64,000 bases of DNA from Okamejei kenojei (GCA_035221665.1 CM069132.1:141112001-141176000); one strand, 5' to 3'. Numbered from the stretch's first letter, positions 780 to 61,910 are shown. The notes: generated from the sequence alone by a model not told the origin. Made by a program: numbers and translations.

Positions 780-892
780 GTGTAGTAAGGAACTGCAGAT
801 GCTGATTTAAACCGAAGATAGACACAAAAAGCTGGAGTAACTCAGCGGGACAGGCAGCATCTGTGGCGAGAAGGAATGGGTGACGTTTCGGG
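780..892 (-). mobile_element. Short Penelope-derived unit, truncated at the hammerhead
   Basis: Same sequence family as the 3' end of the Penelope at 60385-60484; flanked by ttattttatt at 770-779 and 893-902. Confidence 0.75.
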
Positions 893-1244
893 TTATTTTA
901 TTAATGTTTTTATGTGAAATTGTGTTTAATTACACGCCCTAAATTATTGGAAACAATCCCTGTGAACAATCACATTGGAAGGCTTCCTGGAGCTCTGGAG
1001 TCCTTACTTAAATCTCCTAACGTTCTCTTCTGTTTAGTAGACCCTCCTTGGACACTCGTCTAAAGGTCTCTTCCTTTGACTCAGTGGATTATCCGATTTG
1101 ACTTCAGTGAAGAGGCTTTTGGTGTATTTCATTAAGAAGACAATATTAATGCAAGCCACCCTGGAGTTGCTGGTTACATTTCTCTGCATGATGATAGTGA
1201 CTGCAGAGTAAAATGAATGGGTTTGGTTGTAAAGAACAATGGGC

Positions 1245-1555
1245 CAGCACAGTGGTGGAGGAGCAGCAGGCACAAAGGTTGATTCCTGATCTCGAGTGCC
1301 ATCTTTGTGGAATTTCCCGGCTCTTCATGTGACCGTGTTGGTTTCCTCTAGGTACTTTGGGGTCCTCTCATGTCCCAAGGGTGTTGCGTTACTGTCCTGA
1401 GTGGGTAGGTGTGTGGTAGAATCTGGGCAGGGTGGCGGTGATGAGTGTGTGGGGAGAATACAACATCATGGAATTAATGTTGGATTAAGTTACTGCAAAT
1501 GCTTGGGAGATGATTGGAATGGGCCTGTTGGGCTAAAGAGCATTTCTGCACCGCT
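1245..1555 (+). mobile_element. Old degenerate V-SINE (other partial copies at 3065-3272 -, 10560-10815 -, 18795-19090 +, 23205-23420 +, 27835-28020 -)
   Basis: Decayed A/B boxes and V-domain tgtggaattt..gtgaccgtgttggtttcctct. Confidence 0.65.
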
Positions 1556-2147
1556 TCTATCTGCCATTCTCTCCGACAACGTGAAGACATAAATGCAACT
1601 TCTTTATTTTGCAACTATGGATAACATCAGGCAATCGTTGGCTGAAAGGTTATGGGTGAAATCTTGGCAAAGCATATTAGTAGTGTAGGAAAAAAAAAAA
1701 ACTGCTGGAAGAACTCTGTGTTGCAAACAACATCTGTGGAGGCTGTAGAACGGTTGACATTTTGAGTCGAGACCATGCATCGGGACTGAATGTAGGATCT
1801 CAACCCAAAATATTAATCATCCCTTTGTGTTCGCAGATGCTGCTTGGCCTGTAAAACGTTATTCCACCTGTTTCTGTCTGCCTGACGTGCATAGGGATAG
1901 TATAATATATTAAAGACATTATAAGGGGAAGAATTATTTTAAATAATGCATTTCATGCAGCAGCAGAATCATAATCATCTCAAGAGATTTATGTCCCGCG
2001 TTGGCTTGGAACGTCTCTTCAGACTGGAGAAGGGTCCGAACCAAAATATCGTCTGTCCATTCCCTCCACAGATGGTGCACAACTCCATCTGTCATTTCTC
2101 CATTCATTTCTGTGGTTGATCTATAATCCCACCGTATACTTTAATGG

Positions 2148-2246
2148 TAGACAAAAATGCTGGAGAAACTCAGCGGGTGAGGCAGCATCTATAGAACAAA
2201 GGAAATAGGCAATGTTTCGGGGCGAAACCCTTCTTTAAACTGAAGG
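2148..2246 (-). mobile_element. Short Penelope-derived unit with degenerate hammerhead core
   Basis: Family match; 10-bp TSD actttaatgg at 2138-2147 and 2247-2256. Confidence 0.78.
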
Positions 2247-3469
2247 ACTTTAATGGGCTTCCTCGCTGTCTGTAATGGCAGCAATCTTGGAGTCGTTTGT
2301 AAACTTACTAATCAACCGATCCACATTTATGTCCAAGTCATTTATATATATCTCATAGTTAGCACTTTTGAAGCATAGTCACTAAACCTCACACTAATAA
2401 AAACTGGCTGTAATTTCACTGCTGCATTTTAATGGGCTGCTACATTTCAACAGAGACCAAAACTGCTTCAGGACATCCTGACATTTGGAAATATTCTCTG
2501 TAAACTCCTTATTTTCTTTTAGATCACCTCGATCACCTCTGACTGAGCCAACATCAGTGACTACAGCTTGAAAATTGATGTGAGTGCAGCTCTAGACCAG
2601 AGTTCAGATGCAAACCCAAATCCATCAACAAGTTTGGTATTACACATACCATATACCTGAATTCAGCCCAATTTGCTCCAGTGAACTCCAGTGCAATTTT
2701 CTAGTTCAACCACTCTCAACAACCATTGCTCCAAAATTTAGATGCATCCATTTCTTTGGCAGATACAATTATTTTGGTTTATCAGAGCAGATAAAGCTGA
2801 AAGACTGTAGTATAGGAAATGAAGATTAAAAAATACTAGCTGGTGGAAATCTGAAACAAAATCATAATCATACTTTATTAGCCAAGTATATTTTGTAACA
2901 TACGAGGAACTTGATTTGCCAAAAATAGAAAATGCTGGAACAACTCAGCAAGTCAGACAGCGACTGCAGAAAGAGAAACAGTCAGTGCTTTGTGTCGGTA
3001 ACTGGGAGGAAATAAATTTTCAGTAGGTGGGAGAGGGATATGTAGAACAAAGGGAATGGATATAAGTTTAGTTTAATTTAGAGATCCTGCAGAAACAAGC
3101 TCTTCAGCCCAACGAGTCCGCACCGCCCAGCGATCCCTGCGCATTAATGCTACCCTACATACACTAGGGACAATTTACACTTATATCAAGCCAATTAACC
3201 TACTAACCTGTATGTCTTTGGAGCGTGGGAGGAAACCGAAGATCAGAAAAAATCCACACGGTCGCGGTGAGAACATAGAATGGGATTGAGAAAGATAGAT
3301 CAGCCATGATTGACTTGCGGAATAGATTTGATGGGCTGAATGGCCTAATTCTACTCCTAGAATTGCAGCAGATGATAAGTAGTGTCGGAAGTGAAGTGAT
3401 CTTTCTTTCCTTGCTAGACTAGTGTATGGTCCATGCGCATGGATACAAGGTTCTTGATGCCACCTCAAA

Positions 3470-4149: not shown

Positions 4150-4950
4150 CCTCTACCCCACTGAGAATCAAGTGGAGGTGGACTAATCAAGGACAGATAG
4201 GCAGTCAACCCCCACTGGAAGCAACACTGGAAGAACTGCTCAATCACGACCCTGCCCTTGATTCCATCCCACAGAAAACTGCCCAGACTATTTTTCCCAC
4301 CAACCCTAACCAACAAAACATCAGAGAAAAAAAAACCAAGGCTTCGGAACAAATGAAGATGCAAAATGTGGCAAAGGTAATTAATTCTTAAAGATACATT
4401 TCATAACCTCATCTTCTATGTAGGAAGGAACCACAGATGCTGGTTTCAACCGAAGATAGACACAAAATGCTGGAGTAACTCAGCGGGACAGGCAGCATTT
4501 CTGGCGAGTAGGAATGTGTGATGTTTCGGGTTGAGACCCTTCTCCGTCAGTCTGAAGAAAGGTCTCGACCCGAAACATCACTCATTCCTTCTCTCCAACA
4601 TTTTGTGTCTAACCTCATCTTCTATGAATGGGAAGAATGGAAAATGCCTCAGAAATGCCATGCTCATGACTCACTCATCTGGCAATGGCAGCTATAGAGG
4701 TCTCGTGCCAAAGGGATGGTCTTTGTCAGGGTTTTCTCTACTACTAACTACTACTGTCCAGCAGCCACAAATCTGCCTGAATCACAATGCAGATTCTGCC
4801 TGCTTAGAGTCACAATTATTACATTTTGCTACTTCAAGAGAAATGTAGAGAGCAGCATCAACCAATACACATGTTCTTTCTGAACTTAACTAAAGCAAGT
4901 ACACTACTTCCTTACCTTTGCATAACATTGCTGAGTCTCTGGAGTCATGA
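4150..4950 (+). mobile_element. RTE-clade LINE, decayed N-terminal RT region in the opposite orientation
   Basis: WKQHW..ELLNHDPALDSIPQ; GSYRG..LPESQCRF; QEKCREQHQPIHMFFLNLTKA. Confidence 0.7.
4421..4609. mobile_element. Fold-back Penelope-derived unit with two opposed hammerhead-like cores, inserted in an RTE remnant
   Basis: Inverted arms around about 4545; perfect 17-bp TSD taacctcatcttctatg at 4404-4420 and 4610-4626. Confidence 0.85.
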
Positions 4951-11665: not shown

Positions 11666-12229
11666 GACTAAGTTAATGTTCCACTCAAAAAGAAGCACCG
11701 TAGACAGTGCTTCACTCCATCAGTGGTGTATGGGAAGGTCAGATTAGTTAATGCGTTCAGACATGAGTAGGATTTGAACGTACTACAAACTGAAGGGGAA
11801 AGGCATTCGATGAAAGAACCATGGTCATGATGAGGGGAAAACAGAAACAATTTTTATTTTTACTGCATTGGCTTATATATTTTATTTTAACATTTTAAGT
11901 CTGATTGGACTGTATGCAATGCCAAAGTTCAAACACTCCACTTTCCATGGCAAGGGAGTATCTTTCAAGAGTTTTTCAGCAGAAAGTTAATTTAATCACA
12001 AATTGGTACAACCCAGGAACTATTCAATCACATCTCTGCAGCTCCTTTAATGTAAAAAAACATTCCAATGTTTTTCACAGAGGTAGAATTCACTATAAAC
12101 ACACACGACAACGCACTTTCTATCAGGCTTGTACTTGAAGTGAATAGCAACATCTTTTGGGTTTCCGAGCCAGATAATGATGAGTGAATAATTAATCAAG
12201 CAGACTCCATTTCGTGTAAAACAAATAGA

Positions 12230-12647
12230 CAATAGACAATAGGTGCAGGAGTAGGTCATCCGGCCCTTCCAGCCAGCACCACCATTCTCTGTGATCAAGG
12301 CTGATTATTCACAATCAGTACCCCGTTCCTGCTTTCTCCCCATATCCCTTGACTTTGCAATCTTTAAGAGCTCTCTCTAACTCTCTTTTGAAACATCCAG
12401 AGAATTGGCCTGCAGTGCCTTCTGAGACAGAGAATTCCTAAGATTCACAACTCTCTGGGTGAAAAGGTTTTTCCTCATCTCTGTTCTAAATGGCCAACCC
12501 CTAATTCTTAAATTGTGGCCCCTGGTTCTGGACACCCCCAACATCGGGAACATGTTTCCTGCCTCTAATGTATCCAATCTCTTAATAATCTTATATGTTT
12601 CAATAAGATCCCCTCTCATCCTAAATTCCAGTGAATACAAGCCCAGT
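12230..12647 (-). mobile_element. CR1 3' fragment, left half of the copy split by DIRS
   Basis: YSLEF.MRGDLIETYKI..SRTRGH; continues at 17221. Confidence 0.9.
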
Positions 12648-12858
12648 AGATTAAACGAGAACTTACCAGTTTGAAGTTTGATCTTTATTTTATGAGGAGT
12701 CGAGTTGAGGGACTACGTGAATAGAAGCCCGTACAGCCGTTGGTGCGTCAATCTTCAAAGCAGCGGAATGAATTCACAGCTAACAATGACCGAAGTATAA
12801 CGGTAAGATGATAAAACTAGAACTACCAGATGAGATCTATGAGGGTGGGAGCGGAGGG

Positions 12859-12965
12859 CACGTAGTCCCTCAACTCGACTCCTCATAAAAATAAAGATCA
12901 AACTTCAAACTGGTAAGTTCTCGTTTAATCTTACTATTTTACTTCGGAGTCACGTGAGTTACTAC
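12859..12965. repeat. DIRS internal complementary region (ICR)
   Basis: 12859-12931 is the reverse complement of 12648-12719 (one indel). 12936-12965 is the reverse complement of about 17191-17220 (one mismatch). Together they reconstitute the circle junction aatcttactattttac. Confidence 0.92.
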
Positions 12966-13179
12966 TTGAAGAGTTCAAAGCACTGTGAATTCACGCCGCA
13001 GACTCAAATCCGCCGTTCACACTGCCTGGATTGACTCAAAAGTCGTTAACAATCAATCATGCATCAGTAATACATTTGTTAAATGGAATAACAGTTTATT
13101 TACAAACAAATCATAACAAACCCCTCTAACTCAGGGGAAAAATGTAACAGTACTGACACCAGAATCAGCAAACACCCCG

Positions 13180-13998
13180 AACCTTGAAATCGGCTTGTGA
13201 TAAAACCTCTGAAATTAGCTCACTGAACCATCCTGCGGCCGCGAGGACCTTGAAATCGTTTGCACCGACACCTTACTGTGTGGTTTTTTGTGACTAATAA
13301 ACAAACCAACTCTGTTTCTCTCAGAGATTTAGTAATCTCAATGTAACGAGATAAATGTGAGACTATACAGAAGCGATCATCTGCGGAGTATGCTGAAAAC
13401 ACAATCTTACATCCTGTCATGCCTCTTTTATTATGTGTAAGGAAATCATAGACATAAAATATAATGGCATCAGCCGACACATGCATTCTATCTAGCCGTA
13501 GCTTTTGCAACATTTATACACGTTGAGCTGAAACCAACGCCATAAGCATGACCACCTTCATAGATAATTTGGCTACTGATAGGCTTGTAACAGGAGCCCA
13601 CTGGCGACGAGCCATAAAAACTTCACTCAAATTCCAAATACCGGCATACCTGGGTTTAGGAGGATTAAATTGAAAACTCCCTTCATGAATTGTGAAACTA
13701 ACGGATGTCCCTACTGTATGCAATTCTGCATTCATAGATAAATAAGACAGAGCACTTCTGGCTGAATTAATCGCACTGTAACTTAATTTTTTCGGTCAAT
13801 TAAAGAGTTGACAAACTCCAATACATCCGTGATCCCTGCAGTGTGATATACAATATCCTGCTGTAGGCAGAATTGCTCCCACTTGCTTATATAGGTGATA
13901 TATTGCTGCTGTGTACTATCCCTGCAGGTCGACGTTAGAACCTCCACCGTCCGATGAGACAGTCCTCTCCCCAGGTATGGCCTCCTTAAAATCTGCAA
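13180..13998 (-). pseudogene. DIRS tyrosine recombinase, disrupted
   Basis: Fragments RDSTQQQYITYISKWEQFC, PPKPRYAGIW, KLSMKVVMLMALVSAQRV and C-terminal VLAAAGW..FQRFYHKPI. The HxxR box appears to be deleted. Confidence 0.85.
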
Positions 13999-14017
13999 TT
14001 AACAGATCAATACGATC

Positions 14018-15700: not shown

Positions 15701-15792
15701 ACGACTAGGAAAATGTTGACTAGGTAGACTGCCCTTATAGTAAAATCCAATTTTTCACCCCTTCAATACACTAAGTATGAATAAATCTGATG

Positions 15793-16888: not shown

Positions 16889-17220
16889 TCTCTACCCAAA
16901 CTGTCGCGGAAAAGGACATGCGGTAAAAGTTTTTAAAACCTTACCTGTTTGAACTTTGTTAACAAACTGCAAATGCTGGAGAATCGAGGGTGAAGTCTGA
17001 AGAAGGGTCTCGACCCGCAACATCGCCCATCTCCCTCGCTCCTTAGATGCCGCTGCACCCGCTAAATCTCCAGCCTTTCGTGTCACGCGGTTTACACTTA
17101 CCGCTCGGAGGAGCGCTGCTGCTCCAACCGCCCGACTGCACCAGCGTCTGACGTCATGACGCACCAACGGCTGTACGGGCTTCTATTCACGTAGTCACTC
17201 ACGTGACTCCGAAGTAAAAT

Positions 17221-20097: not shown

Positions 20098-20345
20098 AAC
20101 ACAGACGGAAAATAAAACTGGAGTAACTCAACGGGTCACGAAGCATCTCTGGAGAAAAGGAATAGGTGTTCGACACAAAATGCTGGAGTAACTCAGCGGG
20201 ACAGGCAGCATCTCCAGAGAGAAAGAATGGGTGACGTTTCGGGTCGAGACCCTTCTTCAGACTGAGAGTCAGGGGAAAGGCCCAGTCACTCCAGCTTTTT
20301 GTATCTATCATCAGTTTAAACCAGCATCTGCAGTAACTTCCTACG
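20098..20345. mobile_element. Tandem and fold-back Penelope-derived unit
   Basis: Two tandem arms followed by an inverted arm; intact core at 20233-20260. Confidence 0.75.
20233..20260 (-). ncRNA. Minimal hammerhead-ribozyme-like core (Penelope-associated type)
   Basis: Minus strand CTGAAGA-A-GGGTC-TC-GACCC-GAAA-C-GTC gives the CUGANGA box, helix II, the GAAA box and a palindromic ACGU helix III with a GUC triplet. Helix I looks very short by eye. Confidence 0.65.
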
Positions 20346-21663
20346 CTGACAGAAACTATATGTCAATGGCATTTCATTGGCTATAAAATGCTTTGAAACC
20401 TCTTGCAGTCTAGAAGCAATTTATACATTTATGAGCCTTCTCCTTTTAATTCATAGACCTTTTATCTTTTCAGTTTATCTAATCGAAAATATCATTTTGA
20501 ATTGTGACTGCACAAATTGGTTCAATCATTAGTAATGTTAAGAAAAGGACAGTTTATAATTATACCCCTTCCATTGTAAATCTGCAAAATCCAGAACTGC
20601 AACTTAGTTGCATTGGAGCCAGACAGGAATTTGATGAAAACTGTAGATGCCTCTGTGGTACCAGTCTGTCACACTGCATGTACTGTATATAACCAAGGCT
20701 TACTGTTAATATTTTTTAAGGCAAGGCATGCTTGTTTTTTTCCCAAATGACTAGTAAAAATTTGTCATCGGTCCATCTATATTTCATGTTTTGATCATCC
20801 TTTCCATCTGTTATAAACGTCAACAGTTCTTTCCTGAGTTTTGATATGAAAGAGATGCGTGAAACAGAATGATCATGGGTGGCATGGGCTTTATTCCATT
20901 GTATAATTGATAGGGATTTTCTGTTCAATTTCTTTAAGATGCCTTGGATACTGGGTGGTCAAAATTCAATACCAATGCAGAGAGGACATACAGACCAATT
21001 CAATCAATTTTACATTCATAATGCTTACTATGCTACTACGGTACTATAACAACCTTTAAAAGCCACTTCGACAGGTACATGGGGAGGAAAGATTTCATAT
21101 CACAAGACATAGGAGCAGAATTAGGCCATTCAGCCCACCGAGATTACTCCACCCTTCGATTATGGCTGATCTATTTTCCCTCCCAACCCCATTTAATTCT
21201 CCTGAAGGATTTTGAAGGATATAGGTCCAGTGTGGGCATGTAAGACCAGCTTAGACAGGACATCTTAGTCAGCATGTTTCCGTGCTATGTGACTTCATGA
21301 CTAATATTTTGGAACTTACAACCTGTGTCTTTTATACTTTCACTGCCGCTAATGACTGCTTGGAAGAATCCAATAGCAAAGAAATAAACTGCTGTAGGAA
21401 TCTATTCCTGACAAGAGATGGAATAGCTGTGTTTGAATTGTATCCGCATGGAGACAAGATGAAACATATAGAGAAGACATAGCCTATTCATTAGGCCAAT
21501 CTTTTCTGTTTTATTTCAGTATTGCAGATATTGGTCCATGAGACATGGACTAGCAATAACTAAAAATGTACATCCAGCGAGTGGCGAGAATGTAAATAGG
21601 GAAATAGGTTCACCACAGGGAACAAATTAGGCAAATATTGTTGATGCATTTTCAGGGAAGTTA

Positions 21664-23061: not shown

Positions 23062-23200
23062 CTGAAGATAGACACAAAAAGCTGGAATAACTCAGTTTGT
23101 CAGGCAGCATCACTGGAGAAAAGGAATAGGTGACGTTTCGTGTCGAGACCCTTCTTCAGACTGAGAATCAGAGGAAAGGGAAATGAGAGATATAGATGGT
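23062..23200 (-). mobile_element. Penelope-derived unit with hammerhead-like core
   Basis: gacgtttcgtgtcgagacccttcttcag at 23132-23159 with the family arm upstream. Confidence 0.75.
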
Positions 23201-23419
23201 GTCCATACAAAGTTTGTACATTCTCCCTGTGACCGCGTAGGTTTTCTCAGAAATCTTCGGTTTCCTCCCACACTCCAAAGACTTCCAGGCGTGTAGGTTA
23301 CTTGGCTAAGTGTAAATTGTTCCTAGTGTGTGTAGGCTTGTGTTAATGAGCGGGGATCGCTGGTCGGTGTGGATCTCGGTGGACCGACGGGCCTGTTTCT
23401 GCGCCATATCTCTAAAACT

Positions 23420-23720
23420 ACAAAAAGAAAGGTGGAGCCCACAATTGTCCATTGTTGGCTGTGGGCTAGATGATAACGGGTTATAGTGAAACTCAACAGG
23501 AGGACATTGTGAAACAAGTACGACGACTAGGGTGAGGGAGAGAGGATGCAAGGGTTACTTTAAGTTAGAGAAATCAATATTCATACCACTGGGTTGTAAA
23601 CTGCCCAAGCAAAATATGAAGTGCTGTTCCTCCAATCTATGTTTGGCCACCCCTTGACAGTGGGGGAGACCCAGGACAGAAAGGTCAATATGGGAATGGG
23701 AAGGGGAGTTAAACGAATCA
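23420..23720 (-). mobile_element. Penelope-like GIY-YIG C-terminal fragment and 3' UTR
   Basis: FNSPSHSHIDLSVLGLPHCQGVAKHRLEEQHFIFCLGSLQPSGMNIDFSN, homologous to the copy at 60120-60280. Confidence 0.85.
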
Positions 23721-23724
23721 GCCA

Positions 23725-23785
23725 GCGGATTCAACCGTAACCGCGCGTTGAGGGGACGGGACCCAACGGGTCCCCCTTGGTCTAG
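23725..23785 (+). mobile_element. Helitron-like 3' terminus
   Basis: GC hairpin GGGACCC-AAC-GGGTCCC (23758-23774), then a 7-nt spacer and CTAG (23782-23785) followed by T. Confidence 0.6.
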
Positions 23786-24534: not shown

Positions 24535-24720
24535 TTAGACACAAAAAGCTGGAGTAACTCAGCGGGACAGGCAGCATCTTTGGAGAGAAGGACTGGGCAG
24601 CGTTTCGGGTCGAGACCTATCTTCAGACTGAAGAAGGGTCTTGACCCTAAACGTCACCCATTCCTTCTCTCCACAGATGCTGCCTGTCTCACTGAATTAC
24701 TCCGGCATTTTATGTCTACA
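24535..24720. mobile_element. Fold-back Penelope-derived unit
   Basis: Near-palindrome centred on cttcagactgaag (about 24627) with two opposed cores. Confidence 0.8.
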
Positions 24721-25935: not shown

Positions 25936-26319
25936 TAAACCATCTCTTTCCACAGATGCGGCATGAGTGGATGAGTTCTTCTAGAATTTTCTTTTATTGT
26001 TGCTCAAAAGGACTACATAAATTGGTTTACTTACCACCAGTGTCAGCATTGCAATGCAGGGCAGCTACCTTGCAAGATGAACTTAAGCCTCCCTTGCAAC
26101 AGCAGAAATAATTCAATCATAGACAAAAGTTGGAAATTGAATTTTACCTTGTGGTCTTCTGATAGTCAGACTGATCCCCTCACTTCACCAGAATAGTCCG
26201 AATGATATTCACTTTGGCTGAGGCCGAAAAAACCATTGACAAAGTCGCTGTGTCTGCTTCATGGATTTCAATCATTTTCAAACTAGCAGCTGGGACAAGT
26301 ATAATTTTGTTTAGGAATC

Positions 26320-29188: not shown

Positions 29189-29426
29189 AATTTAAAAAAG
29201 ACACAAAGTGCTGGAGCAACTCAGCGGGTCAGGTAGCAAACCGAGGCAGCATGGATAGATGGTGTTTTGGACTGGAACCTTCTTCAGACTGTCTAAGGAA
29301 GGATCCCAACCCAAAACGTCATCTATCCGTGTTCTCTAAGGATGCTGCCTGACCCGCTGAGTTACTCCAGCACTATGTGTCTATTTTTGTAGACCAGCAT
29401 CTGTATTTTCTTGTTTTCATATTAAG
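29189..29426. mobile_element. Fold-back Penelope-derived unit (older)
   Basis: Inverted arms; flanking direct repeat atcccaacaat at 29178-29188 and 29427-29437. Confidence 0.75.
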
Positions 29427-29724: not shown

Positions 29725-29855
29725 GTGTAGGAAGGAACTGCAGATGCTGGTTTACACCGTAGAGACAAAATGCTGGAGTAATTCAGCAGGTCAGGCAGCA
29801 TCCCTGGAGAAATAAGGAATAGGTAAAGGTTTCAGGGCGAGACCCTTCTTCAGAC
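29725..29855 (-). mobile_element. Penelope-derived unit
   Basis: gtgtaggaaggaactgcagatgctgg..gagacccttcttcagac family match. Confidence 0.72.
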
Positions 29856-30152: not shown

Positions 30153-30789
30153 TAGACTGGTGTGAACTAGACTAGTGCTGTAGGAAATCAGCAGGTTAGG
30201 CAGCATCGGTGGAGGGAATGAGGAGACAACGTTTTTGGTCGGAACCCTTCTTCGGGAGTCTTCCCTTTGATAACTTGATGATCTTCATCGCTTAGATACA
30301 GCAGACCAAGTTTCTTTTACGGAAAGGATGGTGTTGTTTGCTAGCAATAGGGTTGCAAATCTTCCGAGATTGAGGAACAGCACCTCATCTTTCAGTTTGT
30401 CCTCTGGACACATTCAGCAACAAAATCAGCAATATTATCTTTGGAGATCTATTTCACATAACAGGTAATGGCAGCTATGATTTTGCTATTCCCATTTAAA
30501 CCATCTCTAGAGAAGCCAATTGTTTCTTTACTTACTCCATTAACATCCCATTTTACATTGCATGATCATCCTTCTGTCATGTGATCTCTCCTGCCTTCCA
30601 CCCTATCTAAGATCTTGCTTTAGTTCATTCCTTCAATGTCTCTTTCCATCTTATAGTTCCTTAAAACCAGTTACCTCTCCAATATTTGCCAGCAACGATG
30701 CAAGTTTAGACTAACTTTGTATCTCTTTTCACAGTTTCTGCTTTTAAATGCTTACAGGATAATTGGTCCAAACAACCTCAAGGTCTCAG

Positions 30790-31798: not shown

Positions 31799-31896
31799 CA
31801 GTCTGAAGAAGGGTCTCGACCCGAAAACGTCGCCTATCTCCTTCGCTCCTTAGATGCTGCTGCACCCGCTGAGTTTCTCCAGCTTTTTGTGTACCC
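31799..31896 (+). mobile_element. Penelope-derived unit with hammerhead-like core, inserted in a CR1 tail
   Basis: CTGAAGAAGGGTCTCGACCCGAAAACGTC from 31803; flanked by tagaaacatagaaa(a/t)tag at 31781-31798 and 31897-31914. Confidence 0.78.
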
Positions 31897-34925: not shown

Positions 34926-35090
34926 GTGTAGGAAGGAACTGCAGCTGCTGGTTTAAACCAAATATAGACACAAAATGCTAGAGTAACTCAGCGGGACATG
35001 AAGCATCTCTGGAGAGAAGGAATGGGTGACGTTTCCTTCTCTCCAGAGATGCTACCTGTGCCGCCGAGTTACTCCAGCATTTTGTGTCTC
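34926..35090. mobile_element. Fold-back Penelope-derived unit with the central cores deleted
   Basis: Inverted arms joined at gacgttt|ccttctctcc. Confidence 0.72.
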
Positions 35091-44550: not shown

Positions 44551-44778
44551 AGGGCCTGTCCCACTTTCACGACCTAATTCACGACTGCTGCCGAGTTTGC
44601 CCTTGACTCGTACTCGCAGCATGGTCGTCACTAGGTCGCAGGTAGGTCGTAGCAGGTCGTGATGCTAGTCGTAGGTACTCGTGGCATCAAGTAGGTCGCG
44701 GCGTTTTTTCTAGCCTGATGAAAAATGTCCATGAGTATAAAAGGTTGTGAATTAGGTCGTGAAAGTGGGACAGGCCCT
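44551..44778. mobile_element. PIF/Harbinger MITE, opposite orientation
   Basis: Same TIR; TSD TAA; internal sequence is the reverse complement of the other two copies. Confidence 0.85.
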
Positions 44779-45607
44779 TAAAGGTTTTACAATTGAACAA
44801 AATACTTTCAATACTTTAAATCCATTGCTCAATTGATAACTTTCAGATCTTTGAGTCAGAGGATTATTTCACCCTAGAGACTTACACACAAAACAGTCAA
44901 AATTCCAAAACAGTGCTGTGTGGGGTCTGTGCTTTCAAAGGAACTATCTTGTATCAGTCCCAACTACTCCTCAAGCAGTTATAAAAAGGTCCCGTGATGG
45001 TGTCTGGAAAAGAGCAGGAAACTTCTCTCCAGTGAAGCCCCACTCTCTCCATAATCATGGTCATTCAACTAATCACACAAGAACATATTTTCTTGTGACA
45101 TTCCTGGAATCTTTTTTGTTATTTCATGCATCAATTGCATTGGAGTAGTAACTAAACTTCGTATATCATTGGCTGTATAATGCTTTGAGGGATCTTGAGC
45201 AAACAACAATACTTTATTTTTTAGTAGCAACATATTTTGCGAGAGAACCACATCTTAGTACTAAGCATATTGCAAAAGACATGCCATCGCCCTATCATCA
45301 AAACTAGCTGTCGATCAGAAAAGCCTAACTTTCTATTTCAACTGGGTGAATTGCAACTTATTTTAAACCAAACTGTGCAACAGGTTTTGAACCTGGAGGG
45401 GCACTTGCTTTAAAATGTACAGCCTATGCAGAATAGAACTGAGAGAATGCATAATGTATTAGGATTTCAATAAATATACTTTGCAGATCTACTTTGTTTT
45501 GTAATTAATGACACAAAGAATTGTTCCTTACCTAATAATTGGAAAACAGTAATTGAAGTAATATTTTGATCAGTGGCCGAAAGCGTAATGCATGTCTGCA
45601 ATATAAT

Positions 45608-46804: not shown

Positions 46805-46895
46805 GTAGACAAAAATGCTGGAGAAACTCAGCGGGTGAGCCAGCAACTATGCAGCAAAGGAATAGGTGACGTTTTGGGTCGAGACCCTTCTTCAG
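46805..46895 (-). mobile_element. Penelope-derived unit with hammerhead-like core
   Basis: Family match; imperfect 14-bp TSD acttgtattagaag (46791-46804) and acttttatttgaag (46896-46909). Confidence 0.75.
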
Positions 46896-47049
46896 ACTTT
46901 TATTTGAAGTTGCTGACGTTTCTTTCTTAAGTTGACAAGATGGTGCCGGAGCATGGCAACTCTTTGTGTGCTCTTCCCAGAGGAAGATCTACCATCATCG
47001 CTTGACTGTTTTAAATCACTTCTATACCTGCAATTCAGCCCCTTTGCTC

Positions 47050-49380
47050 TATCTAGTGTACGGAAGGAAATCCACATTAGGCAGGAAATGGTGTTGGGTA
47101 GACTGATGGCACTGAAGGCTGACAAATCCCCAGGGCCTGATTGTCTGAATCCCAGGGTACTTTAAGGAAGTGGCTCTAGAAATTGTGGATGCATTGGTGA
47201 TAATTTTCCAATGTTCTATAGATTCAGGATCCGTCCCTGTGGATTGGAGGGTAGCAAATGTTATCGCATTTTTTAAGAAAGGCGGGAGAGAGAAAACAGG
47301 GAATGATAGACGAGTTAGCCTGAAATTGGTGGTGGGGAAGATGCTGGAGTCAGTTATAAAAGATGAAATAGTGGCACATTTGTGAATGGTATGTATGTTA
47401 GCGTTCATAGCAAAAGGATTTGAGTATAGGAGCAGGGAGGTTCTACTTCAGTTGTACAGGGTCTTGGTGAGACCACACCTGGAGTATTGCATACAGTTTT
47501 GGTCTCCAAATCTGAGGAAGGACATTATTACCATAGAGGGAGTGCAGAGAAGGTTCACCAGACTGATTCCTGGGATGTCAGGACTGTCTTATGAAGAAAG
47601 ACTGGATAAACTCGGTTTATGCTCTCTAGAATTTAGGAGATTGAGAGGGGATCTTATAGAAACTTATAAAATTCTTAAGGGGTTGGACAGGCTAGATGCA
47701 GGAAGATTGTTCCCGATGTTGGGGAAGTCCAGGACAAGGGGTCACAGCTTAAGGATAAGGGGGAAATCCTTTAATACCGAGATGAGGAAGACATTTTTTC
47801 ACACAGAGAGTGGTGAGTCTCTGGAACTCTCTGCCACAGAGGGTAGTTGAGGCCAGTTCATTGGCTATATTTAAGAGGGAGTTAGATGTGGCCCTTGTGG
47901 CTAAGGGGATCAGAGGGTATGGAGAGAAGGCAGGTACGGGATACTGAGTTGGATGATCAGCCATGATCATATTGAATGGTGGTGCAGGCTCGAAGGGCTG
48001 AATGGCCTACTCCTGCACCTAATTTCTATGTTTCTATTTGGATAGCAGTAACAGGATTGGTCCGAGTCAGCATGGATTTACGAAGGGGAAATCATGCTTG
48101 ACTAATCTTCTGGAATTTTATGAAGATGTAACTAGGAAAATGGACAAGGGAGAGCCAGTGGATGTAGTGTACCTGGACCTTCAGAAAGCATTTGATAAGG
48201 TCCCACATAGGAGATTAGTGGGCAAAATTAGGGCACATGGTATTGGGGGTAGAGTGCTGACATGGATAGAGAAGTAGTTGGCAGACAGGAAACAAAAAGC
48301 AGGGATTAACAGATACCTTTCAAAATGGCAGGCAGTGACTAGTGGGGTACCACAAGGCTCGGTGCTGGGACCGAAGCTATTTACAATATACATCAATGAT
48401 TTAGATGAAAGGATTCAAAATAACATTAGCAAATTTGCAGATGACACAAAGCTGGGTGGCAGTGTGAACTGTGAGGAGGATGCTATGAGAATGCAGGGTG
48501 ACTTGGACAGGTTGGTGAGTGGGCAGATGCATGGCAGATGCAACTTAATGTGGATAAATGTGAGGTTATCTACTTTGGTAGCAAAAAACAAAAAGGTAGA
48601 TTATTATCTAAATGATGTCAAGTTGGGAAAAGGGGAAGTACATTGGGAGTCTGAAATACAGTCTGAAGAAGGATTTCAACCTGAAACGTTGCATATTTGC
48701 TTCGCTCCATAGATGCTGCCTCACCCGCTGAGTTTCTCCAGCATTTTTGCCTTAGTACAATGGGATCTGGGGGTCCTTGTTCATCAGTCAATGAAAGTAA
48801 GTATACAGTTACAGCAGGCAGTGAAGAAAGCGAATGGCATAACAAGAGGAGTTGAGTATAGGAGCAAAGAGTCATTCTGCAGTTGTAAATGGCCCTAGTG
48901 AGACCACACTGGAGTATTGTGTGCAGTTTTGGTCCCCTAATTTGAGGAAGGACATTCTTGCTATTGAGGGAATGCAGTGTAGGTTTACAAGGTTAATTCC
49001 CGGGATGGCGGGACTGTCATATGCTGAGAAAATGGAGCGGCTGCGCTTGTATACTCTGGAGTTTAGAAGGATGAGAGGAGATCTTATTGAAACATATAAG
49101 ATTATTAAGGGTTTGGAGTCGCCAGAGGCAGGAAACATGTTCCAGATGTTGGGGGAGTGAGTCTGTGGAATTTGCTGCCTCAGAGGGTGGTGGAGGCCGG
49201 TTCTCTAGATACTTTCAATAGAGAGCTAGATAGGGCTCTTAAAGACAGCGGAGTCAGGGGATATGGGGAGAAGGCAGGAACGGGGTACTGATTGGGGATG
49301 ATCAGCCATGATCACTTTGAATTGCGGTGCTGGCTCGAAGGGCCGAATGGCCTACTCCTGCACCTGTTGTCCATTATCTA
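47050..49380 (+). mobile_element. CR1 LINE (RT region to 3' tail) interrupted by a younger CR1 (47383-48035) and by a Penelope-derived unit
   Basis: KSPGPD, VPVDWRVANV, then [27 protein letters not shown] and FADD after the nested copy. The nested copy is flanked by atttg at 47378-47382 and 48036-48040. Confidence 0.92.
48649..48753 (+). mobile_element. Penelope-derived unit inserted into a CR1 RT coding region
   Basis: Interrupts CR1 sequence; 12-bp TSD agtaca(t/a)tggga at 48637-48648 and 48754-48765. Confidence 0.8.
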
Positions 49381-50972: not shown

Positions 50973-51213
50973 CATATATATGGAAAAGGTTAGATAAGAA
51001 AGATGAGAGGAGTCATGGTGAATATTAACACCTGCACAAACCTATTGCTCTGAACTGCCAATTTTAGCACTAACAGGAATAATTATTGGACTTCCTTTGA
51101 AAATAAATGGATTCAACTGTTTTATGCATCCAATAGTGGCTGAACAGCTGCCAGGGCCTTTCAATGCTCAATTCACCACAAAGTCTATTGTAGAAGACAA
51201 AGCTGAAAATAAG

Positions 51214-51458
51214 ATAGACACAAAATGCAGGAGTAACTGAGCGGTATACGCAGCATTTCAGGAGAGAAGGGATGGGTGACATTTCTGGCCTAGACCCTTC
51301 TTCAGTCTGAGTTACTCCAGCTTTTTGTGTCTATCTTCGGTTTAAACCAGCATCTGCAGTTCCTTGTGTAGGAAAGCAGGACGGACAGCATCTCTGGAGA
51401 GTAGGAATGGGTGACGTGTCGAATCGAGACCCTTCTTCTGTAGTTCCTTCCTACACAT
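51214..51458. mobile_element. Rearranged multi-arm Penelope-derived unit
   Basis: Alternating arms with two cores; flanking gctgaa(a/t)ataag at 51202-51213 and 51459-51470. Confidence 0.72.
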
Positions 51459-54983: not shown

Positions 54984-55074
54984 TAACCTATAATCCATAT
55001 CTAACTAGGTGGTAATCCAGGGTTGATCTTGAGTTAGCTACTCATTGAAATGGAGAACACAATGGGAACACTAT

Positions 55075-55889
55075 GTGTAGGAAGGAACTGCAGGCGAAAT
55101 GTGTAGGAAGGTACTGCAGATGCTGGTTTAAACCGCAGATGCTGCTATAAACCAAAGATAGCACAAAATGCTGGAGTAACTCAGTTACTCCAGCGAGTGG
55201 AGGAATAGGTGAAGTGGAGAGAAGGAATAGGTGAAGTTTCGGGTTGAGACACTTCTTCAGACCGAACGATGATCTGAAGAATCAAGGAGCGCAGGAGGAT
55301 GAGGGGACATCTTATAGAGGTATACAAAATCATGGGAGGATTAGATTGGGTAGATGCACAGTCTTTTACCCAGAGTAGGGGAATCGAAGACCAGAGGACG
55401 TAGGTGAAGGGGAAAAGATTTAATAGGAATCCGAGGACAAACATTTTCACACAAAGGGTGGTGGGTGTATGGGACAAGCTGCCAGAGGAGGGAGTTGATG
55501 CTGGGACTATCCCATTGTTTAAGAAACAGTTAGACAGGTAGATGGATAGGACAGGTTTGGAGGGATATAGACCGAGCGCAGCAAGTGGAACTAGTGTAGC
55601 TGGGACATTGTTGGCGGTGTGGGCGAGTTGGGCCGACGGGCCTGTATCCACACTGTATCAACATGACTCTAAGGAGGGTCTCGACCCAAAACGTCACCCA
55701 TTCCTTATCTCCTGGGAACACAATGGTTGCCCTCAACACTCGTGTGACTGGATGTGGCTCAACTCTGGCATCTTATTGTAGGAGCAATGCTGGTTTACAA
55801 AAAAAAACCCAGAATGCTGAAGTAAACGAGTGGCTCAGGCAGCATTCCTGGAGGATATGGATAGGTGACGTTTCGGGTCGGGACCTTTC
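55075..55889. mobile_element. Nested cluster: Penelope-derived arms interrupted by a CR1 3' fragment (about 55283-55670, plus strand) and by the Gypsy element
   Basis: Family arms at 55075-55265, 55670-55715 and 55775-55889; the last arm resumes after the LTR element at 57628. Confidence 0.7.
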
Positions 55890-56090
55890 TGTAGTGAAGG
55901 TACACAGACACCTTTAGGTCTTCACTACTTCATTAATCATACATCATATAGCCCTGGCTGTACGTGGTCTGTCACGATCACCAGAGAGAGAGCTAGGGGC
56001 GTGTGGGTTACAATTATACTAACTGGTGGGGGGGTGGTTAGCATGGACATTGTCACTATCAATTAAAGGTGTATACACATATCATCTACA
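55890..56090 (-). repeat. 3' LTR of the Gypsy element
   Basis: Direct repeat of 57427-57627 with TGTA..TACA termini; adjacent to the PPT on the minus strand. Confidence 0.93.
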
Positions 56091-56182: not shown

Positions 56183-56785
56183 TCACATGTAATCGCCGTA
56201 ACGGACCGGCGGCCTGACCAGGCGACCAGACCGGGTCCGCACCTCGCCATCACCTCCTTCCCCGACGGGAACAAGCGGAGACGATGCCGGGGCATGGTGG
56301 GGGCTACGGACAGGAGAACCCCTGGGCGATGAAGGCATCGGGGGGGACGATGAAGAGAAGGGCGAGGAAGCCGGAGAAAACGGGACCGCAGCCGGGAGGC
56401 GGACAGGAGGAGAACGGGGGGGGGGGGGGGGTGACCCCAGAGGAACGGGCAAAGCACTGGGCCGCGACAGTGGCAGGGGGGGGGCATACGGAGCCGCCGG
56501 GGGTGGGAGAGGCTCGTTCACGAGCCGGAGATGCTGGCGGGACCGGCGGTACACCCTTCCGTCGTGGTTGACAAGGTACAAATGAGGGGAACCGGCAGAA
56601 CCGACGACCACGGCCAGCTTGGAACGGCCAGAAGTGGACCTCATACGGACGACCTGGCCGGGGAGAAGAGGGCAGAGGACACGGCAGGACCTGTCGTGGG
56701 AACGCTTCTGTATACCGTGTTTTTGGGCACTGCGTTTCCGGACCAAGGCAGGTTTAAAGACGGAGGGGGACAGGGACTGCTGAGT
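56183..56785 (-). pseudogene. Gypsy integrase C-terminal tail
   Basis: LLPGQVVRM..YLVNHDGRVYRRSRQHLR, a proline-rich linker, then VRTRSGRLVRPPVRYGDY: a typical Gypsy pol C-terminus ending just before the PPT. Confidence 0.8.
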
Positions 56786-56802
56786 ATCCAGGACCCGGTA
56801 TG

Positions 56803-57408
56803 TCTGCCTGCAGATCCATGACGGGGTGCAACTGCCTGTGTCCTACGCATCCCGCACAATGACGACCGCTGTACAACACTATGCCCAGATTGAAAAGGAG
56901 CTGCTGGCTGTTGTCTTTGCCTGCTCCAAATTCAAGGACTATATCCTGGGCAACTGCATCACTGTCGAGACGGACCAACAGCCTCTGGTCACCATCCTCA
57001 ACAAGCCGATACACGTGGCCTCCTCCCGGCTCCAGCGCATGATGCTCCAGCTACAACGCTTCACTTTCACAGTGGTTTATCGCAAGGGCAAGGACATGTT
57101 TGTTGCTGACACGCTGTCTCGGGCGCCTCTCTCATCCACAACCCAGCATCCGTACGAGACGTCCGATCTGATAGTCCTAAACGTTAATTTCGTGCCCTCC
57201 AGTCAGTTGAAGTCCCTGGCCAAGCACACGGCGGCTGACGCTTCGCTACAGCAACTGGCCGCGATATTCAAGCAGGGCTGGCTTTCCGCGCTTTTGCCGA
57301 ACGATGGAACATTCGCCATTACACCAGCAGCCCGGAATACCCGCAGAGCAACGGACTGGCCGAGCGCGCGGTCCGCAGTGCTAAAGGATTGTTGGAACGT
57401 TGCCGCCT
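56803..57408 (+). pseudogene. Gypsy RNase H domain fused by deletion to an integrase-core fragment; inverted relative to the LTRs
   Basis: PVSYASRTMT..YAQIEKELLAVVFAC..VETDQQPL..RLQRMMLQLQRF..VADTLSRAP, then in another frame TSSPEYPQSNGLAERAVRSAKGLL (about 57290-57408). Confidence 0.9.
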
Positions 57409-57426
57409 ATCCCACTTCTGACACCA
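57409..57426 (-). promoter_or_regulatory. Primer-binding site complementary to the tRNA-Leu (CAA/CAG) 3' end
   Basis: Minus strand reads TGGTGTCAGAAGTGGGAT directly after the LTR. The plus strand ATCCCACTTCTGACACCA is the 3' end of vertebrate tRNA-Leu as I recall it. Confidence 0.85.
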
Positions 57427-57627
57427 TGTAATGAAGGTACACAGACACCTTAATGTCTTCACTACTTTATTAATCATACATCATATAGCCCTAGCTGTAC
57501 GTGGTCTGTCACGATCACCAGAGAGAGAGCTAGGGGCGTGTGGGTTACAATTATACTAACTGGTGGGGGAGTGGTTAGCATGGACATCGTCACTATCAAT
57601 TAAAGGTGTATGCACATATCATCTACA
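57427..57627 (-). repeat. 5' LTR of the Gypsy element
   Basis: Direct repeat of 55890-56090; contains AATAAA on the minus strand; followed on the minus strand by the PBS. Confidence 0.93.
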
Positions 57628-58282: not shown

Positions 58283-59975
58283 ATAAAACAAATCATTCAC
58301 TGAACAGTAACACTAGCAAAAGAAGCTCAGTAAGATGTAATGTTACCAAACAGTCATTGAGATAACAGTGCAATCGATGCAGAGTCCTTCAGTGCTTGGA
58401 ATTTAGTCTCTCATCTAGCTAATGGGATTTGAAATCTGCAGGTGAAGACGGAACCATTAAGGTGACTTATACAGAAGATTTATTCAGAAAACTTGCTCTG
58501 AAATTTACCAATGAAATTTCTCACTCGAGGTAACCATGGCAATTTGCAGTTGTCCTTGAAATCTTCTGTCAATGTATGATTGTTGCTTGCAGCTGCTCTC
58601 ACTGCAAGAACACTTTCATTCGTTACCATGGAGCAAATGGAGGCATTTTAACCACAGTATTCTTCAATCTCCAAGGATTGCACTGTGACTGCGCCTCACC
58701 TTTCATTAACCATCATTTCGAGCTCGATTAGGGAGAACGATAAAAGTGTGGAGCTGGCAGACTTAACACATTTAACCCATACCCAGGCCCCCCGAATGTG
58801 CCTTGTGGGCCACTAGGCACGCTCGAAAATCCTGAGTAGAGGGATTATAAAAACCTAGCAGCGGACAGAACATTACGGAATTAATGTTGCTTTTGTTGTT
58901 GCAGTATTTTTCAAACATTAAACCAACTACAGCACCCATGTGACGTTTTCCATTTCCTTTCACCAATAGAAACAATATTGCTTTATTAACTCTATCAAAA
59001 CACGACATCATTTTTAAGGTCTGTATTGAATCTCCCTTAACATTTACGACTAGGAGGAGAGCAATCCCAATATTTCCAATCTCCCCCATATATCCAAAGT
59101 CTCTCATCCTTGAAAGATGTCGCAGTCCAGTGCACCAGGATTACATTAACAGCGCACGGAAAGTCTATCACGCCCATTGCTGGATGTTAACTCACTCCTT
59201 CATGTTCCTGCCTGACATTTCACACATCCTGCCATCCAGACATGGGTAGCAGAGGAACATAGAAATGTGATCAAGGCACTCAGCTCCTCGTACACCTTTT
59301 GCATTTCAATCACAATGCGGTTGAGCTGCATTTTAGTTCCATTTACGGGTCGTGCACTGCAATTACTAACGTCTAACCTCACAAATGTTTCTTGGATTCG
59401 GTTTTGAAATATTCAACTGATCAGTTCTGAGAGATGTTCAGATTTCCATTATCATTTTTATGGTGATGGCTTTCTGATCTCATTCCCAGCTCCAATTTAG
59501 TTTGTTCTGGACTTGCCAGCCAAAACCTACAGTAACCTTCAAAATCCTAACTGGACCACTTATTTGTAGTGGGCTGGAGAAAGCCGAGTGCTTGTTGGTG
59601 CTTGCAATTCTACAGGATTTTGACCTTCGTGGAGTTCTTACAATTTGAACCACGATACACTCAGTAGGTTCAAATCTCATTTCTGAGACTCCAGTACAAA
59701 CTCCAGGGCAATCTTTCCCAGATGATCACTTTTGAAATGGATCTAACGTTAGAAAGAAAATACAGAATAACACCAATGTTGTAATGTTTTTTTGTAGGAC
59801 CTTGTTGTGCAGAAACTGGCGTGGAAAATTGACCAATAGTGGCGACACTTCAACATTACATCATTTGCAATAAAGCACTTCTCAGATTATGAGTGCAAAA
59901 ATTAATGCATAGAATTTAGCACAGTACAACACAGGAGCAGGCCCTTCGGCCCATAATAATGCCAAGTTATACTAA

Positions 59976-60484
59976 GCGTAGGCTTGGCGATCGTTTCGTC
60001 GAACACCTCTGCTCGGTCCGCATTAACCAACCTGACAGCTGATCTATATCGGTGAGACCAAGCGTAGGCTTGGCGATCGTTTCGCCGAACACCTCCGCTC
60101 GGTCCGCATTAACCAACCTGGCTCAGCACTTCAACTCCCCCTCCCATTCCGTATCCGACCTCTCTGTCGTGGGTCTCCTCCACGGCCAGAGTGAGCAACA
60201 CCGGAAATTGGAGGAACAGCACCTCATATTCCACTTGGGGAGTCTGCATCCCGGTGGCATGAACATGGCATTTCTCACAATTCTGTTGACCCTTGCTGTC
60301 TCCTCCCCTTCCTACCTCTCCCTCAGGCCTCGGGCTCCTCCTCCTTCTTTTTCCTTTCTTCTCCCTGCCTCCTCCCACCCCCTATCAGTCTGAAGAAGGG
60401 TTTCGGCACGAAACGTTGCCTGTTTCCTTCGCTCCATAGATGCTGCTGCACCGGCTGAGTTTCTCCAGCATTTTTGTGTACCTT
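59976..60484 (+). mobile_element. 5'-truncated Penelope-like element (GIY-YIG endonuclease C-terminus plus 3' repeat with hammerhead-like core), inserted in a CR1 tail
   Basis: YIGETKRRLGDRFAEHLRSVR and AQHFNSPSHSVSDLSVVGLLH..RKLEEQHLIFHLGSLHPGGMN. CTGAAGAAGGGTTTCGGCACGAAACG at about 60390-60416. 14-bp TSD ccaagttatactaa at 59962-59975 and 60485-60498. Confidence 0.88.
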
Positions 60485-61280
60485 CCAAGTTATACTAATC
60501 TCTTCTGCCTGCATGTGATCCATATCGCTTCATTCCCTGCATCTCCATGTGCCTATCTAAAAGCTTCCAAATGCCACCATGCCACATATGCCTCCACCGC
60601 CACCCCTGGCAGTGCCTTCCGGGCACCCACCACTCTCCAGGCACTCACCAATTGCCCTGCACATCTCCTTTAAACTTTGCTCTTCTCACCTTAAATTTAT
60701 GCCCTCCACTCTTTGACATTTCCACTCTGCGAAAAAAGGTTCTGAATATCTACCCTATCTATGCTGCCCATCATTTTATATACTTCCATCAGGTCTTCCC
60801 ACAGCCTCCGATGCACCAGACAGAACTAAAAAGTTTGTCCAGTTTCTGGTAAACCTCGGCTGCACCCTCTTCAAAGCCTCTATATCCTTTCTGTAAAGTA
60901 GCGTACCAGAACTGCATACCATACTCCAAATGTGGCCTAGCCCAATTCCTACAAAGCTGCCAACATGTGTTCCTGGCTCATAATCAATGTCCCGACCAAT
61001 AAAGGCAAACATGCTGTACACCTTCATTATCCTCGATCTACTGGTGTTGTCACTTTCATGGACTTTGAATCCTAATATCCCTCCATATAATAATGCTGTT
61101 AAGAGTCTTTCCATTTACTGTGTACTTTTCTCTCACATTCAACCTCACAAACTAACACCTCACATTTGCTTGGATTAAACTCCAATCGCTCTTTCTCCAC
61201 TCGTTTCAGTAACTGGCCCTATCCCGCTGTATACTTTGGCAGCGTCCCTCACTCCTCCAATTTTGGTGTCATCAGCAGAC
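60485..61280 (-). mobile_element. Older CR1 RT and 3' fragment
   Basis: YRKDIEALKRVQPRFTR; reverse strand near 61260-61280 encodes SADDTKIG. Confidence 0.8.
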
Positions 61281-61574
61281 TTCAAGTTCAAGTCAAGTGA
61301 GTTTATTGTCATGTGCCCCTGATAGGACAATGAAATTCTTGCTTTGCATCAGTGCACAGAACATAGAAGGCATTTACTACAAAACAGATCAGTGTGTCCA
61401 TATACCATATATAAATATATACACACATGAATAAATAAACTAATTAACCAACCCATCTACATGTAATTCCAAGTTGCTTATATGTATCACAAACAGCTGA
61501 GGTCCTAGCACAATTCCCTGTAGAAACCCATTGGTCTAACCTACCATTTCCATAAGCTTTCAATTCAACATTAT

Positions 61575-61910
61575 TGCAATGAAGCTGCTGGACGCTCAGC
61601 AGGTCAAGCAACAAATGTGACGACAAAAGTTGACCTTTTCGGGCCTTGCATCAAGACCTGCACTTTGCCTCCACAAATACAATTCGACCTATTGAGTTCC
61701 CCCAGTTGTTTTTTGTTTGTAGATACAAAATGCTGGAGGTAGTCAGCAGTTCAGGCAGCATCTCTGGAGAAAGGGAAAGGTGATGTTGCGTGTCAACACC
61801 CTTCTTCTGGCCCGACCCGAATTGACCTGACCCGAAACGTCACCTCTTCCTTTTCTCCAGTGATGCTGTCTGACCCGCTGTGTTACCCAGCAATTTTTGT
61901 CTATCTTTGG
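61575..61910. mobile_element. Two degenerate fold-back Penelope-derived units
   Basis: Inverted arms at 61720-61910 and a more decayed copy at 61575-61710. Confidence 0.62.

Follow-up and report, generated by a model that had tools for sequence, protein, structure and literature searches.

A 64,000-nucleotide stretch of the genome of the skate Okamejei kenojei (GCA_035221665.1, CM069132.1:141112001-141176000; hereafter the window, with positions counted from its first letter) contains a dense family of short units that resemble hammerhead ribozymes in their core. Judged from their sequence, these units represent one end of a Penelope-like element (PLE), its terminal repeat (pLTR), and at 16 of 25 loci they start at one fixed 5' boundary. 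We consider it moderately probable that they are short integration by-products of autonomous, probably Neptune-type PLEs. An earlier note on this DNA had described them as a separate, retrozyme-like family; the features that it did not contain, namely a 3' tail, head-to-head inverted pairs and the fixed 5' boundary, turned out to be the informative ones.

Units were detected with a profile hidden Markov model (HMM) trained on 19 seed segments from the window, which gave 40 matches at E<1; the best match in the reversed window had E=0.81. Three matches with E>0.05 were dropped (37 kept), and two more were removed: 12214-12263, a CR1 end matched in error, and a piece consisting of tail alone. 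The final set comprised 35 segments in 25 loci (4,296 bp in total, one locus per 2.56 kb), in agreement with the density first reported. The segments were 70-95% identical to the consensus, indicating that the insertions are spread over a long time, and they were assigned to the young subfamilies A, B1 and B2 or to an older subfamily C. Within a unit, the C of CUGA is taken as position 0, and the predicted cut lies after +27.

Target-site duplications (TSDs) at many loci support the earlier view that the units were inserted independently. Of seven direct repeats previously listed as TSDs, those at 4404/4610, 770/893, 2138/2247 and 29178/29427 were exact and the other three were imperfect (11/12 at 48637/48754 and 51202/51459, 12/14 at 46791/46896). 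A boundary-anchored scan, for which locus boundaries were curated by eye, gave scores of at least 8 at 9 of the 25 loci, compared with 9 of 600 mismatched left/right pairs. One of these nine (61706/61937) is poly-T and doubtful, and the exact 11-bp TSD at 29178/29427 is not among them because it lies outside the search zone of the scan. Additional TSDs were found at 31781/31897 (18 bp) and at 59962/60485 (14 bp), the latter around an entire GIY-YIG-bearing copy. TSD length was variable (10-18 bp). The reconstructed empty site of 48637/48754 was spanned by two other CR1 copies; the same test at 31781 and 59961 gave no spanning match, with approximate coordinates for 59961.

The link to Penelope comes from two loci that continue upstream into a GIY-YIG C-terminus (59976-60484, plus strand, and 23730-23062, minus strand), as had been proposed for the unit at 60385-60484 and for the origin of the family as a whole. 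A profile of both GIY-YIG ends matched 392 proteins. In the best match, P0121, a full GIY-YIG domain aligned with both ends; its N-terminal reverse transcriptase (RT) part may be a fused LINE piece. A Cys linker was present upstream in 10 of the 22 relatives with a GIY-YIG N-terminal motif; these ten include P0123, P0139 and P0148, which are among the higher-scoring matches of the profile. Such a linker between RT and GIY-YIG is assigned to Neptune/Nematis (PMC8557442). The source element is probably Neptune-type, the linker being read in relatives and not in the window's own GIY-YIG copies, which are truncated before that region. Two proteins from elsewhere, P0178 and P0215, appear to read through weakly from the GIY-YIG end into unit-like sequence, a faint hint that the same arrangement holds outside the window. 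Pfam gave no match for the GIY-YIG C-terminal fragments, the N-terminal 30 amino acids of the fragment matched Pfam GIY-YIG under the cut-off (E=0.029), and a word-indexed homologue search with 23570-23749 found no match, unlike the profile search. Mobilization by the PLE RT and GIY-YIG, as the earlier note had suggested, is supported as an inference. Separately, P0122, P0123 and P0165 are predicted host proteins (a G-protein-coupled receptor, DUF4518 and NYAP) with embedded PLE GIY-YIG pieces, which suggests frequent exonization or mis-annotation. The old unit at 30170-30253 (minus strand) has a short weak match to the PLE GIY-YIG C-terminus some 110 bp away, at 30366-30398 (plus strand); the two are perhaps one very old inverted insertion.

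The 5' ends clustered at the start of the hammerhead. They fell within the 11 nt from -8 to +2 at 16/25 loci (21/35 segments), and of the 19 loci extending this far, 16 go no further. Random 5' truncation of inserted PLEs, to which single motifs of this kind have been ascribed (PMC4209133), would fit the nine loci whose 5'-most end lies outside the zone (6 downstream, 3 upstream), but it is hardly credible for the whole set: truncation simulations (four geometric models and one uniform) gave p<=1e-4. As a control, the window's CR1 pieces, which include internal fragments, showed no clustering, with at most 2/22 ends in any 9 nt. The lengths thus do not form the continuum expected of random truncation. 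In addition, only 2/35 5' ends were close to the GUC cut site. Taken together, the clustering and the scarcity of ends near the cut reject both random truncation and units defined by cleavage. About eleven of the 16 boundary loci are fixed by a TSD or by a partner arm, so that lost homology cannot explain their boundary; among them, the TSD-bounded monomers at 31799, 48649, 46805 and 2148 end there without a partner arm.

At the other side of the unit, two classes of 3' end were observed, a main class at about +89 to +97 and a tail class at about +128 to +131, roughly 38 nt apart. The PLE tail has been traced to two internal RT start sites (PMC11167929). Nine insertions are head-to-head inverted pairs, in which inspection by eye placed the tail on one arm only in eight, on neither arm in one and on both arms in none. 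A tail at one end and an inverted 5'-truncated copy are stated for PLEs in PMC8557442, and rotifer PLEs have palindromic inverted junctions and solo pLTRs (PMC3846280). The pair junctions varied by locus and none recurred at two loci; several use TCAG/CTGA microhomology, including that of the arm starting at +65, and a pseudo-peptide search across the 24536-24718 junction returned no candidate junctions at other loci. Snap-back self-priming as the sole origin of the pairs is disfavoured, since the arms mostly end at different start sites. We also rejected an identity as miniature inverted-repeat transposable elements (MITEs), because the pairs differ in arm length and junction and their TSDs are 10-18 bp and not short and fixed.

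The hammerhead motif itself is genuine, and the source elements probably maintained it. The core read previously at 20233-20260 (minus strand) was reproduced letter for letter, and the assignment to minimal type I hammerheads holds for the consensus. The consensus of A, B1 and B2 has the CUGANGA and GAAA boxes, an extra nucleotide before stem II and G10.1-C11.1; helix III is palindromic and loopless (GAAAC-GUC). Helix I has only 2 bp, with A-C as a third pair, and is thereby shorter than the 4-5 bp given for the minimal hammerhead ribozymes (min-HHRs) of PLEs, and the majority of the older group has A at G12, a CpG site. The description of the units as bearing hammerhead cores fits this consensus and does not fit most copies, given that the core was intact in only 4/22 core-spanning segments under strict criteria (60382, 23181, 20285 and 31799; the sequence at 31799 contains an additional A, which was disregarded in the projection). 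The first three of these are the copies that extend upstream of the boundary, so that intact cores occurred in 3/3 upstream-extending copies compared with 1/19 others (post hoc p=0.003).

Two checks proposed with the original description gave different outcomes: a minimal-type-I descriptor found 5 sites compared with 0.57 per shuffled window, and the Rfam models, run over the window, gave no hammerhead among 7 matches at E<=5. A third check, of core against flank, showed about twofold conservation over all copies, with a difference that was not significant in short ones. For the 20 short segments alone, core mismatches were 8/158 and flank mismatches 61/717 (p=0.19, or p=0.75 once two copies trimmed at +2 are counted as mismatched). 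CpG decay in these copies was alike in the core (14/71) and at other CpGs (10/67), and core defects were scattered, often at CpG. With regard to folding, 81.6% of cells were paired in the covariation analysis, far above slid controls but not above shuffles, of which 219-370 of 500 reached the observed values; RNAalifold favoured another pairing, folding z-scores ranged from -2.05 to +0.48, and for three copies the constrained dimer fold lay 9.5-17 kcal/mol above the minimum-energy cofold. Most of 17 aligned copies retain an alternative pairing of +8 to +11 with +28 to +31, which joins the 5' strand of stem II to the bases that follow the cut and would turn the hammerhead off in the monomer. 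Published min-HHRs cleave poorly (PMC4209133), and cleavage by a PLE hammerhead has been described as needing the PLE protein (PMC11167929). A diverged hammerhead-like core with a CUGAUGA box, missed by the family HMM, lies at 25373-25412 (plus strand) and possibly belongs to an older PLE family.

The hammerhead consensus and the long TSDs would also be expected of a non-LTR retrozyme, in which tandem transcripts cut by hammerheads give monomeric or circular RNAs that are reverse transcribed and inserted; derivation from PLE pLTRs and occurrence in a chondrichthyan have been reported for such elements (bioRxiv 10.64898/2026.07.22.740005), and one piece (20168) starts at +27. We regard a retrozyme as very improbable here, and the label retrozyme-like is not borne out. 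No tandem array of the unit was present among 19 TRF rows, the ends lie off the cleavage site as described above, the paired cores are on opposite strands, and the hammerhead is not of the canonical type found in the 150-450 bp tandems of known retrozymes (PMC7229834).

We favour an origin of the units as by-products of PLE integration, which might proceed as follows. Each unit is a PLE terminus ending at about +90 or about +130, and these two 3' ends would represent internal RT start sites like those of the Anolis PLE studied in vitro. Priming would occur from a GIY-YIG nick in AT-rich DNA, giving TSDs of 10-18 bp. Transcription of a PLE starts in its upstream pLTR (PMC2377424), so that two copies of the RT start region could lie on one RNA; priming in the one nearer the 5' end would then give a short run and run-off at the RNA end, and the short units would be such run-off cDNAs. 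The boundary would accordingly mark a fixed RNA 5' end, probably a transcription start at an initiator-like TCAGT. In the in vitro work on the Anolis PLE, uncut RNA was the dominant template and product length was set by the template's 5' end (PMC11167929). If both target strands were primed, one from each start site, head-to-head pairs would result, their arms presumably joined through microhomology in the quasi-palindrome TCAG-T-CTGA. The hammerhead would be carried along uncut and decay after insertion, with selection acting in the source elements and not in these copies. A, B1 and B2 each hold one copy that runs upstream past the boundary, which fits production from long sources.

The same upstream-extending copies, together with junctions that differ from locus to locus, tend to speak against the separate non-autonomous family claimed earlier. 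Such a family could take the form of a self-propagating mini-PLE resembling a short interspersed element (SINE), with a unit of 95-135 nt that contains an internal promoter and RT starts and is copied in trans by a Neptune protein. We judge this rather unlikely. It would suit the fixed 5' and 3' ends and the ratio of short to upstream-extending copies (16 to 3), and there are precedents in the internal promoter of D. virilis Penelope (PMC2377424), in cis-acting pLTRs that are enough for integration in trans (PMC3846280) and in non-autonomous PLE derivatives of Chlamydomonas (PMC8557442); the concentration of intact cores in upstream-extending copies could likewise mean relaxed selection in short sources. 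However, the short copies nest in the subfamilies of the long ones (of which the window has only three), no junction is shared by two pairs, the core defects show the scatter, and the frequent position at CpG, that decay after insertion would give, and no tRNA gene was detected in the window.

A barrier to reverse transcription was weighed as well. RT starting from the 3' pLTR might cross the hammerhead and stall at a splice-acceptor-like pyrimidine tract, on RNA that is bound by protein or processed, or the junction might be trimmed to TCAG/CTGA. A pyrimidine tract followed by CAG adjoins helix I in all three copies that keep upstream sequence, matching the intron end of D. virilis Penelope; the 5' ends are spread over about 11 nt and not fixed to one base; and palindromes at inverted PLE junctions are known (PMC3846280). 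On the other hand, the TSD-bounded monomers listed above stop at the boundary without a partner arm, the stronger stem II palindrome was not used as a junction in the pairs inspected, and no common upstream exon sequence was seen by eye; inspection of the two pLTRs revealed no upstream exon end able to extend helix I after splicing. We hold such a barrier to be improbable.

Several observations weigh against the by-product origin that we prefer. The boundary fits a splice acceptor equally well (71-90% pyrimidine followed by CAG), and the reading of TCAGT as an initiator is a consensus match. In D. virilis Penelope the intron ends at helix I (PMC4209133) and the start site lies about 120 nt upstream (PMC2377424). 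At about five boundary loci, which have neither a TSD nor a partner arm, the boundary could reflect lost homology, and the 5' ends of pairs were corrected by eye. The one-tail asymmetry of the pairs is borderline (conditional p=0.053). When all young copies are pooled, the non-CpG core positions show 8 mismatches compared with 18.8 expected (p=0.003), the expectation being that of base-matched flanks with subfamily-diagnostic columns removed and insertions ignored. Finally, the window holds no RT-bearing PLE copy and no GIY-YIG-bearing copy of subfamily B1, and since only three copies extend upstream, by-product and self-propagation are weakly resolved.

The fixed boundary and the single tail per pair bear on how PLEs integrate and on the purpose of the hammerhead. 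If the density of this one window is typical, the skate genome would contain many thousands of TSD-bounded events, with which run-off, dual priming and non-autonomy could be tested by computation alone. Tentatively, "strong-stop-like" PLE run-off cDNAs may have left a very large fossil record in the genome, or it may contain a SINE-like mini-PLE of about 100 nt consisting of promoter and RT starts, with one protein dimer priming both strands at the two start sites. If true, dual priming by one dimer would account in vivo for both the tail and the inverted pLTR, with hammerhead cleavage bypassed. The pairs are also open to mis-annotation as MITEs or as microRNA (miRNA) hairpins; three loci gave sub-threshold Rfam miRNA matches. 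The positions of all loci are collected in the table.

Table. PLE-derived units and related features in the window (unit positions in the text columns take the C of CUGA as 0).
Feature	Position	Strand	Details
Monomer, +16 to tail end	780..893	-	10-bp TSD 770/893
Old head-to-head pair, ~70% identity	1684..1879	.	tail on one arm
Old remnant, pair-type junction	2018..2078	+	
Monomer (A), about -8 to main end	2148..2246	-	10-bp TSD 2138/2247
Old fragment from +30	2920..2981	-	
Head-to-head pair	4420..4609	.	tail on minus arm; plus arm internally deleted; 17-bp TSD 4404/4610
Plus unit (A) from -3 and inverted tail-only arm	16958..17086	.	within DIRS-like element
Composite	20103..20346	.	minus unit -25..+89 (B1), minus piece +27..+90 (B2-like), inverted tail-bearing arm +68..+128; no clear TSD
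Best-preserved minimal type I core	20233..20260	-	CUGAAGA, extra A, stem II 4-5 bp, GAAAC/GUC, helix I 2 bp
5'-truncated PLE, subfamily B2	23062..23730	-	GIY-YIG C-terminus 23728-23561; repeat 23197-23417 splits pLTR
Unit in 23062..23730	23165-23062	-	core boxes intact, C3 at 23159
Palindromic head-to-head pair	24535..24720	.	arms 91 nt, 84% complementary, both main ends; TSD not found
Old fragment from +39	25945..25995	+	
Head-to-head pair, older subfamily C	29199..29424	.	tail on plus arm; exact 11-bp TSD 29178/29427
Monomer, -2 to tail end	29725..29855	-	
Old monomer from +2	30170..30253	-	
Monomer (A), -4 to main end	31799..31896	+	within CR1 3' end; 18-bp TSD, 1 mismatch, 31781/31897
Head-to-head pair truncated +20/+33	34926..35090	.	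tail on minus arm; possible TSD below score threshold
Monomer (A) from about -3	46805..46898	-	14-bp TSD, 2 mismatches, 46791/46896
Monomer (A) from -4, short duplicated 5' piece	48649..48752	+	within CR1; 12-bp TSD, 1 mismatch, 48637/48754
Composite	51211..51457	.	minus unit from -5, inverted arm +65..+123, minus piece +2..+66, tail pieces; 12-bp TSD, 1 mismatch, 51202/51459
Unit from -5, repeated tail pieces, tiny inverted 5' stub	55072..55280	-	
Fragment -1..+50 adjoining another repeat	55668..55717	+	
Old monomer from about +5, with tail	55778..55890	-	
5'-truncated PLE, subfamily A	59976..60484	+	hammerhead unit 60385-60484; 14-bp exact TSD 59962/60485; GIY-YIG C-terminus with YIGETKR motif, duplicated piece, frameshifting deletion; pyrimidine-rich pLTR
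Old fragment from +17	61586..61643	-	weak, E=0.0065
Head-to-head pair (+2/+15)	61719..61930	.	duplicated junction pieces; tail remnant on plus arm

The host gene is CTNND2 (catenin delta-2), on the minus strand, of which protein matches identified a single exon at 43933-44170; the top of 1,142 matches was from Amblyraja radiata (99% identity), and tblastn with two full-length proteins found no further convincing exon in the window. CTNND2 has a neural role, so the neural host gene inferred earlier stands; the window spans two of its introns, separated by this exon, and not the one that had been assumed. Relative to CTNND2, 14 units are sense and 10 antisense (p=0.54), and this lack of strand bias gives no sign that sense copies harm the pre-mRNA. 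The pairs place long hairpins in a neural pre-mRNA. More speculatively, two cores on the CTNND2 sense strand with intact boxes (C3 at 23159 and 20260, 2.9 kb apart) could pair and cut it.

About 31% of the window is sequence that is repeated inside it. A decayed DIRS-like element at ~12648-17221 (minus strand) was recognized by eye from recombinase-like, RT-like and RNase H-like open reading frame (ORF) pieces, which had no Pfam match; its inverted repeats lie at 12648-12931, with a matching end at 17157-17221, and the unit 16958-17086 is inside it. A broken LTR-retrotransposon fragment with an RT-RNase H domain, which we take to be Gypsy-like, occupies 56183-57431. Three copies of a 220-235 bp MITE, presumably Harbinger-like, are located at ~21660-21880, 38318-38548 and 44548-44780, with terminal inverted repeats of ~40 bp and apparent TAA/TTA target duplications. 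A SINE-like 220-bp repeat is present at 23197-23417 and about nine more sites, the first copy splitting the PLE pLTR of 23062-23730. The CR1/L2-type ORF1 esterase (GDSL) region lies at 62192-62914 (plus strand), and at least 22 other CR1 fragments occur in the window.

Among known systems, the min-HHRs in the pLTRs of metazoan PLEs (Cervera and de la Pena 2014, PMC4209133) share with the skate units the core boxes, the extra base, G10.1-C11.1, the palindromic C-G at 15.2/16.2, the location in the pLTR, an occurrence mostly as dispersed singles and pairs on opposite strands. Helix I has 2 bp here, as in D. virilis, compared with 4-5 bp in Schistosoma, and stem II has 4-5 bp here; the available text on those min-HHRs says nothing of 5' ends fixed at the motif. 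Poseidon PAc of Anolis (Frangieh et al. 2024, PMC11167929) has the same two internal RT starts giving the tail, AT-rich targets, priming on both strands, an uncut RNA template and starts shortly downstream of the hammerhead. The skate element differs in that it looks Neptune-type and, by eye, has no long ORF starting in the unit. A genomic run-off class of fixed length is not in the main text of that paper, and a text search of its supplements found no match; its figure S2 may show a comparable 5' boundary. PLE insertions described by Craig et al. (2021, PMC8557442) and Arkhipova et al. (2013, PMC3846280) have the same inverted 5'-truncated copy, a tail of 30-40 bp at one end, a palindromic inverted junction, TSDs of 8-10 bp and solo pLTRs, whereas here only the last 95-135 nt are present, no ORF lies between the arms and the density is high. 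Non-LTR retrozymes (Cervera and de la Pena 2020, PMC7229834; Li et al. 2026, bioRxiv) likewise have a type I hammerhead, an origin in PLE pLTRs, no coding sequence and long TSDs; the skate units differ in that they do not form head-to-tail tandems, their hammerhead is minimal, their ends bear no relation to the cut and their lengths are below 150 bp. Our literature search, which covered few subscription papers, found none that treats this skate family or a run-off class with a fixed boundary; for solo pLTRs it returned only PMC3846280, and the accessible part of PMC2746220 does not describe a fixed-boundary class. PLE hammerheads, tails and inverted ends are thus already known; the dense instance in this skate is new, and its 5' boundary is the feature worth attention.

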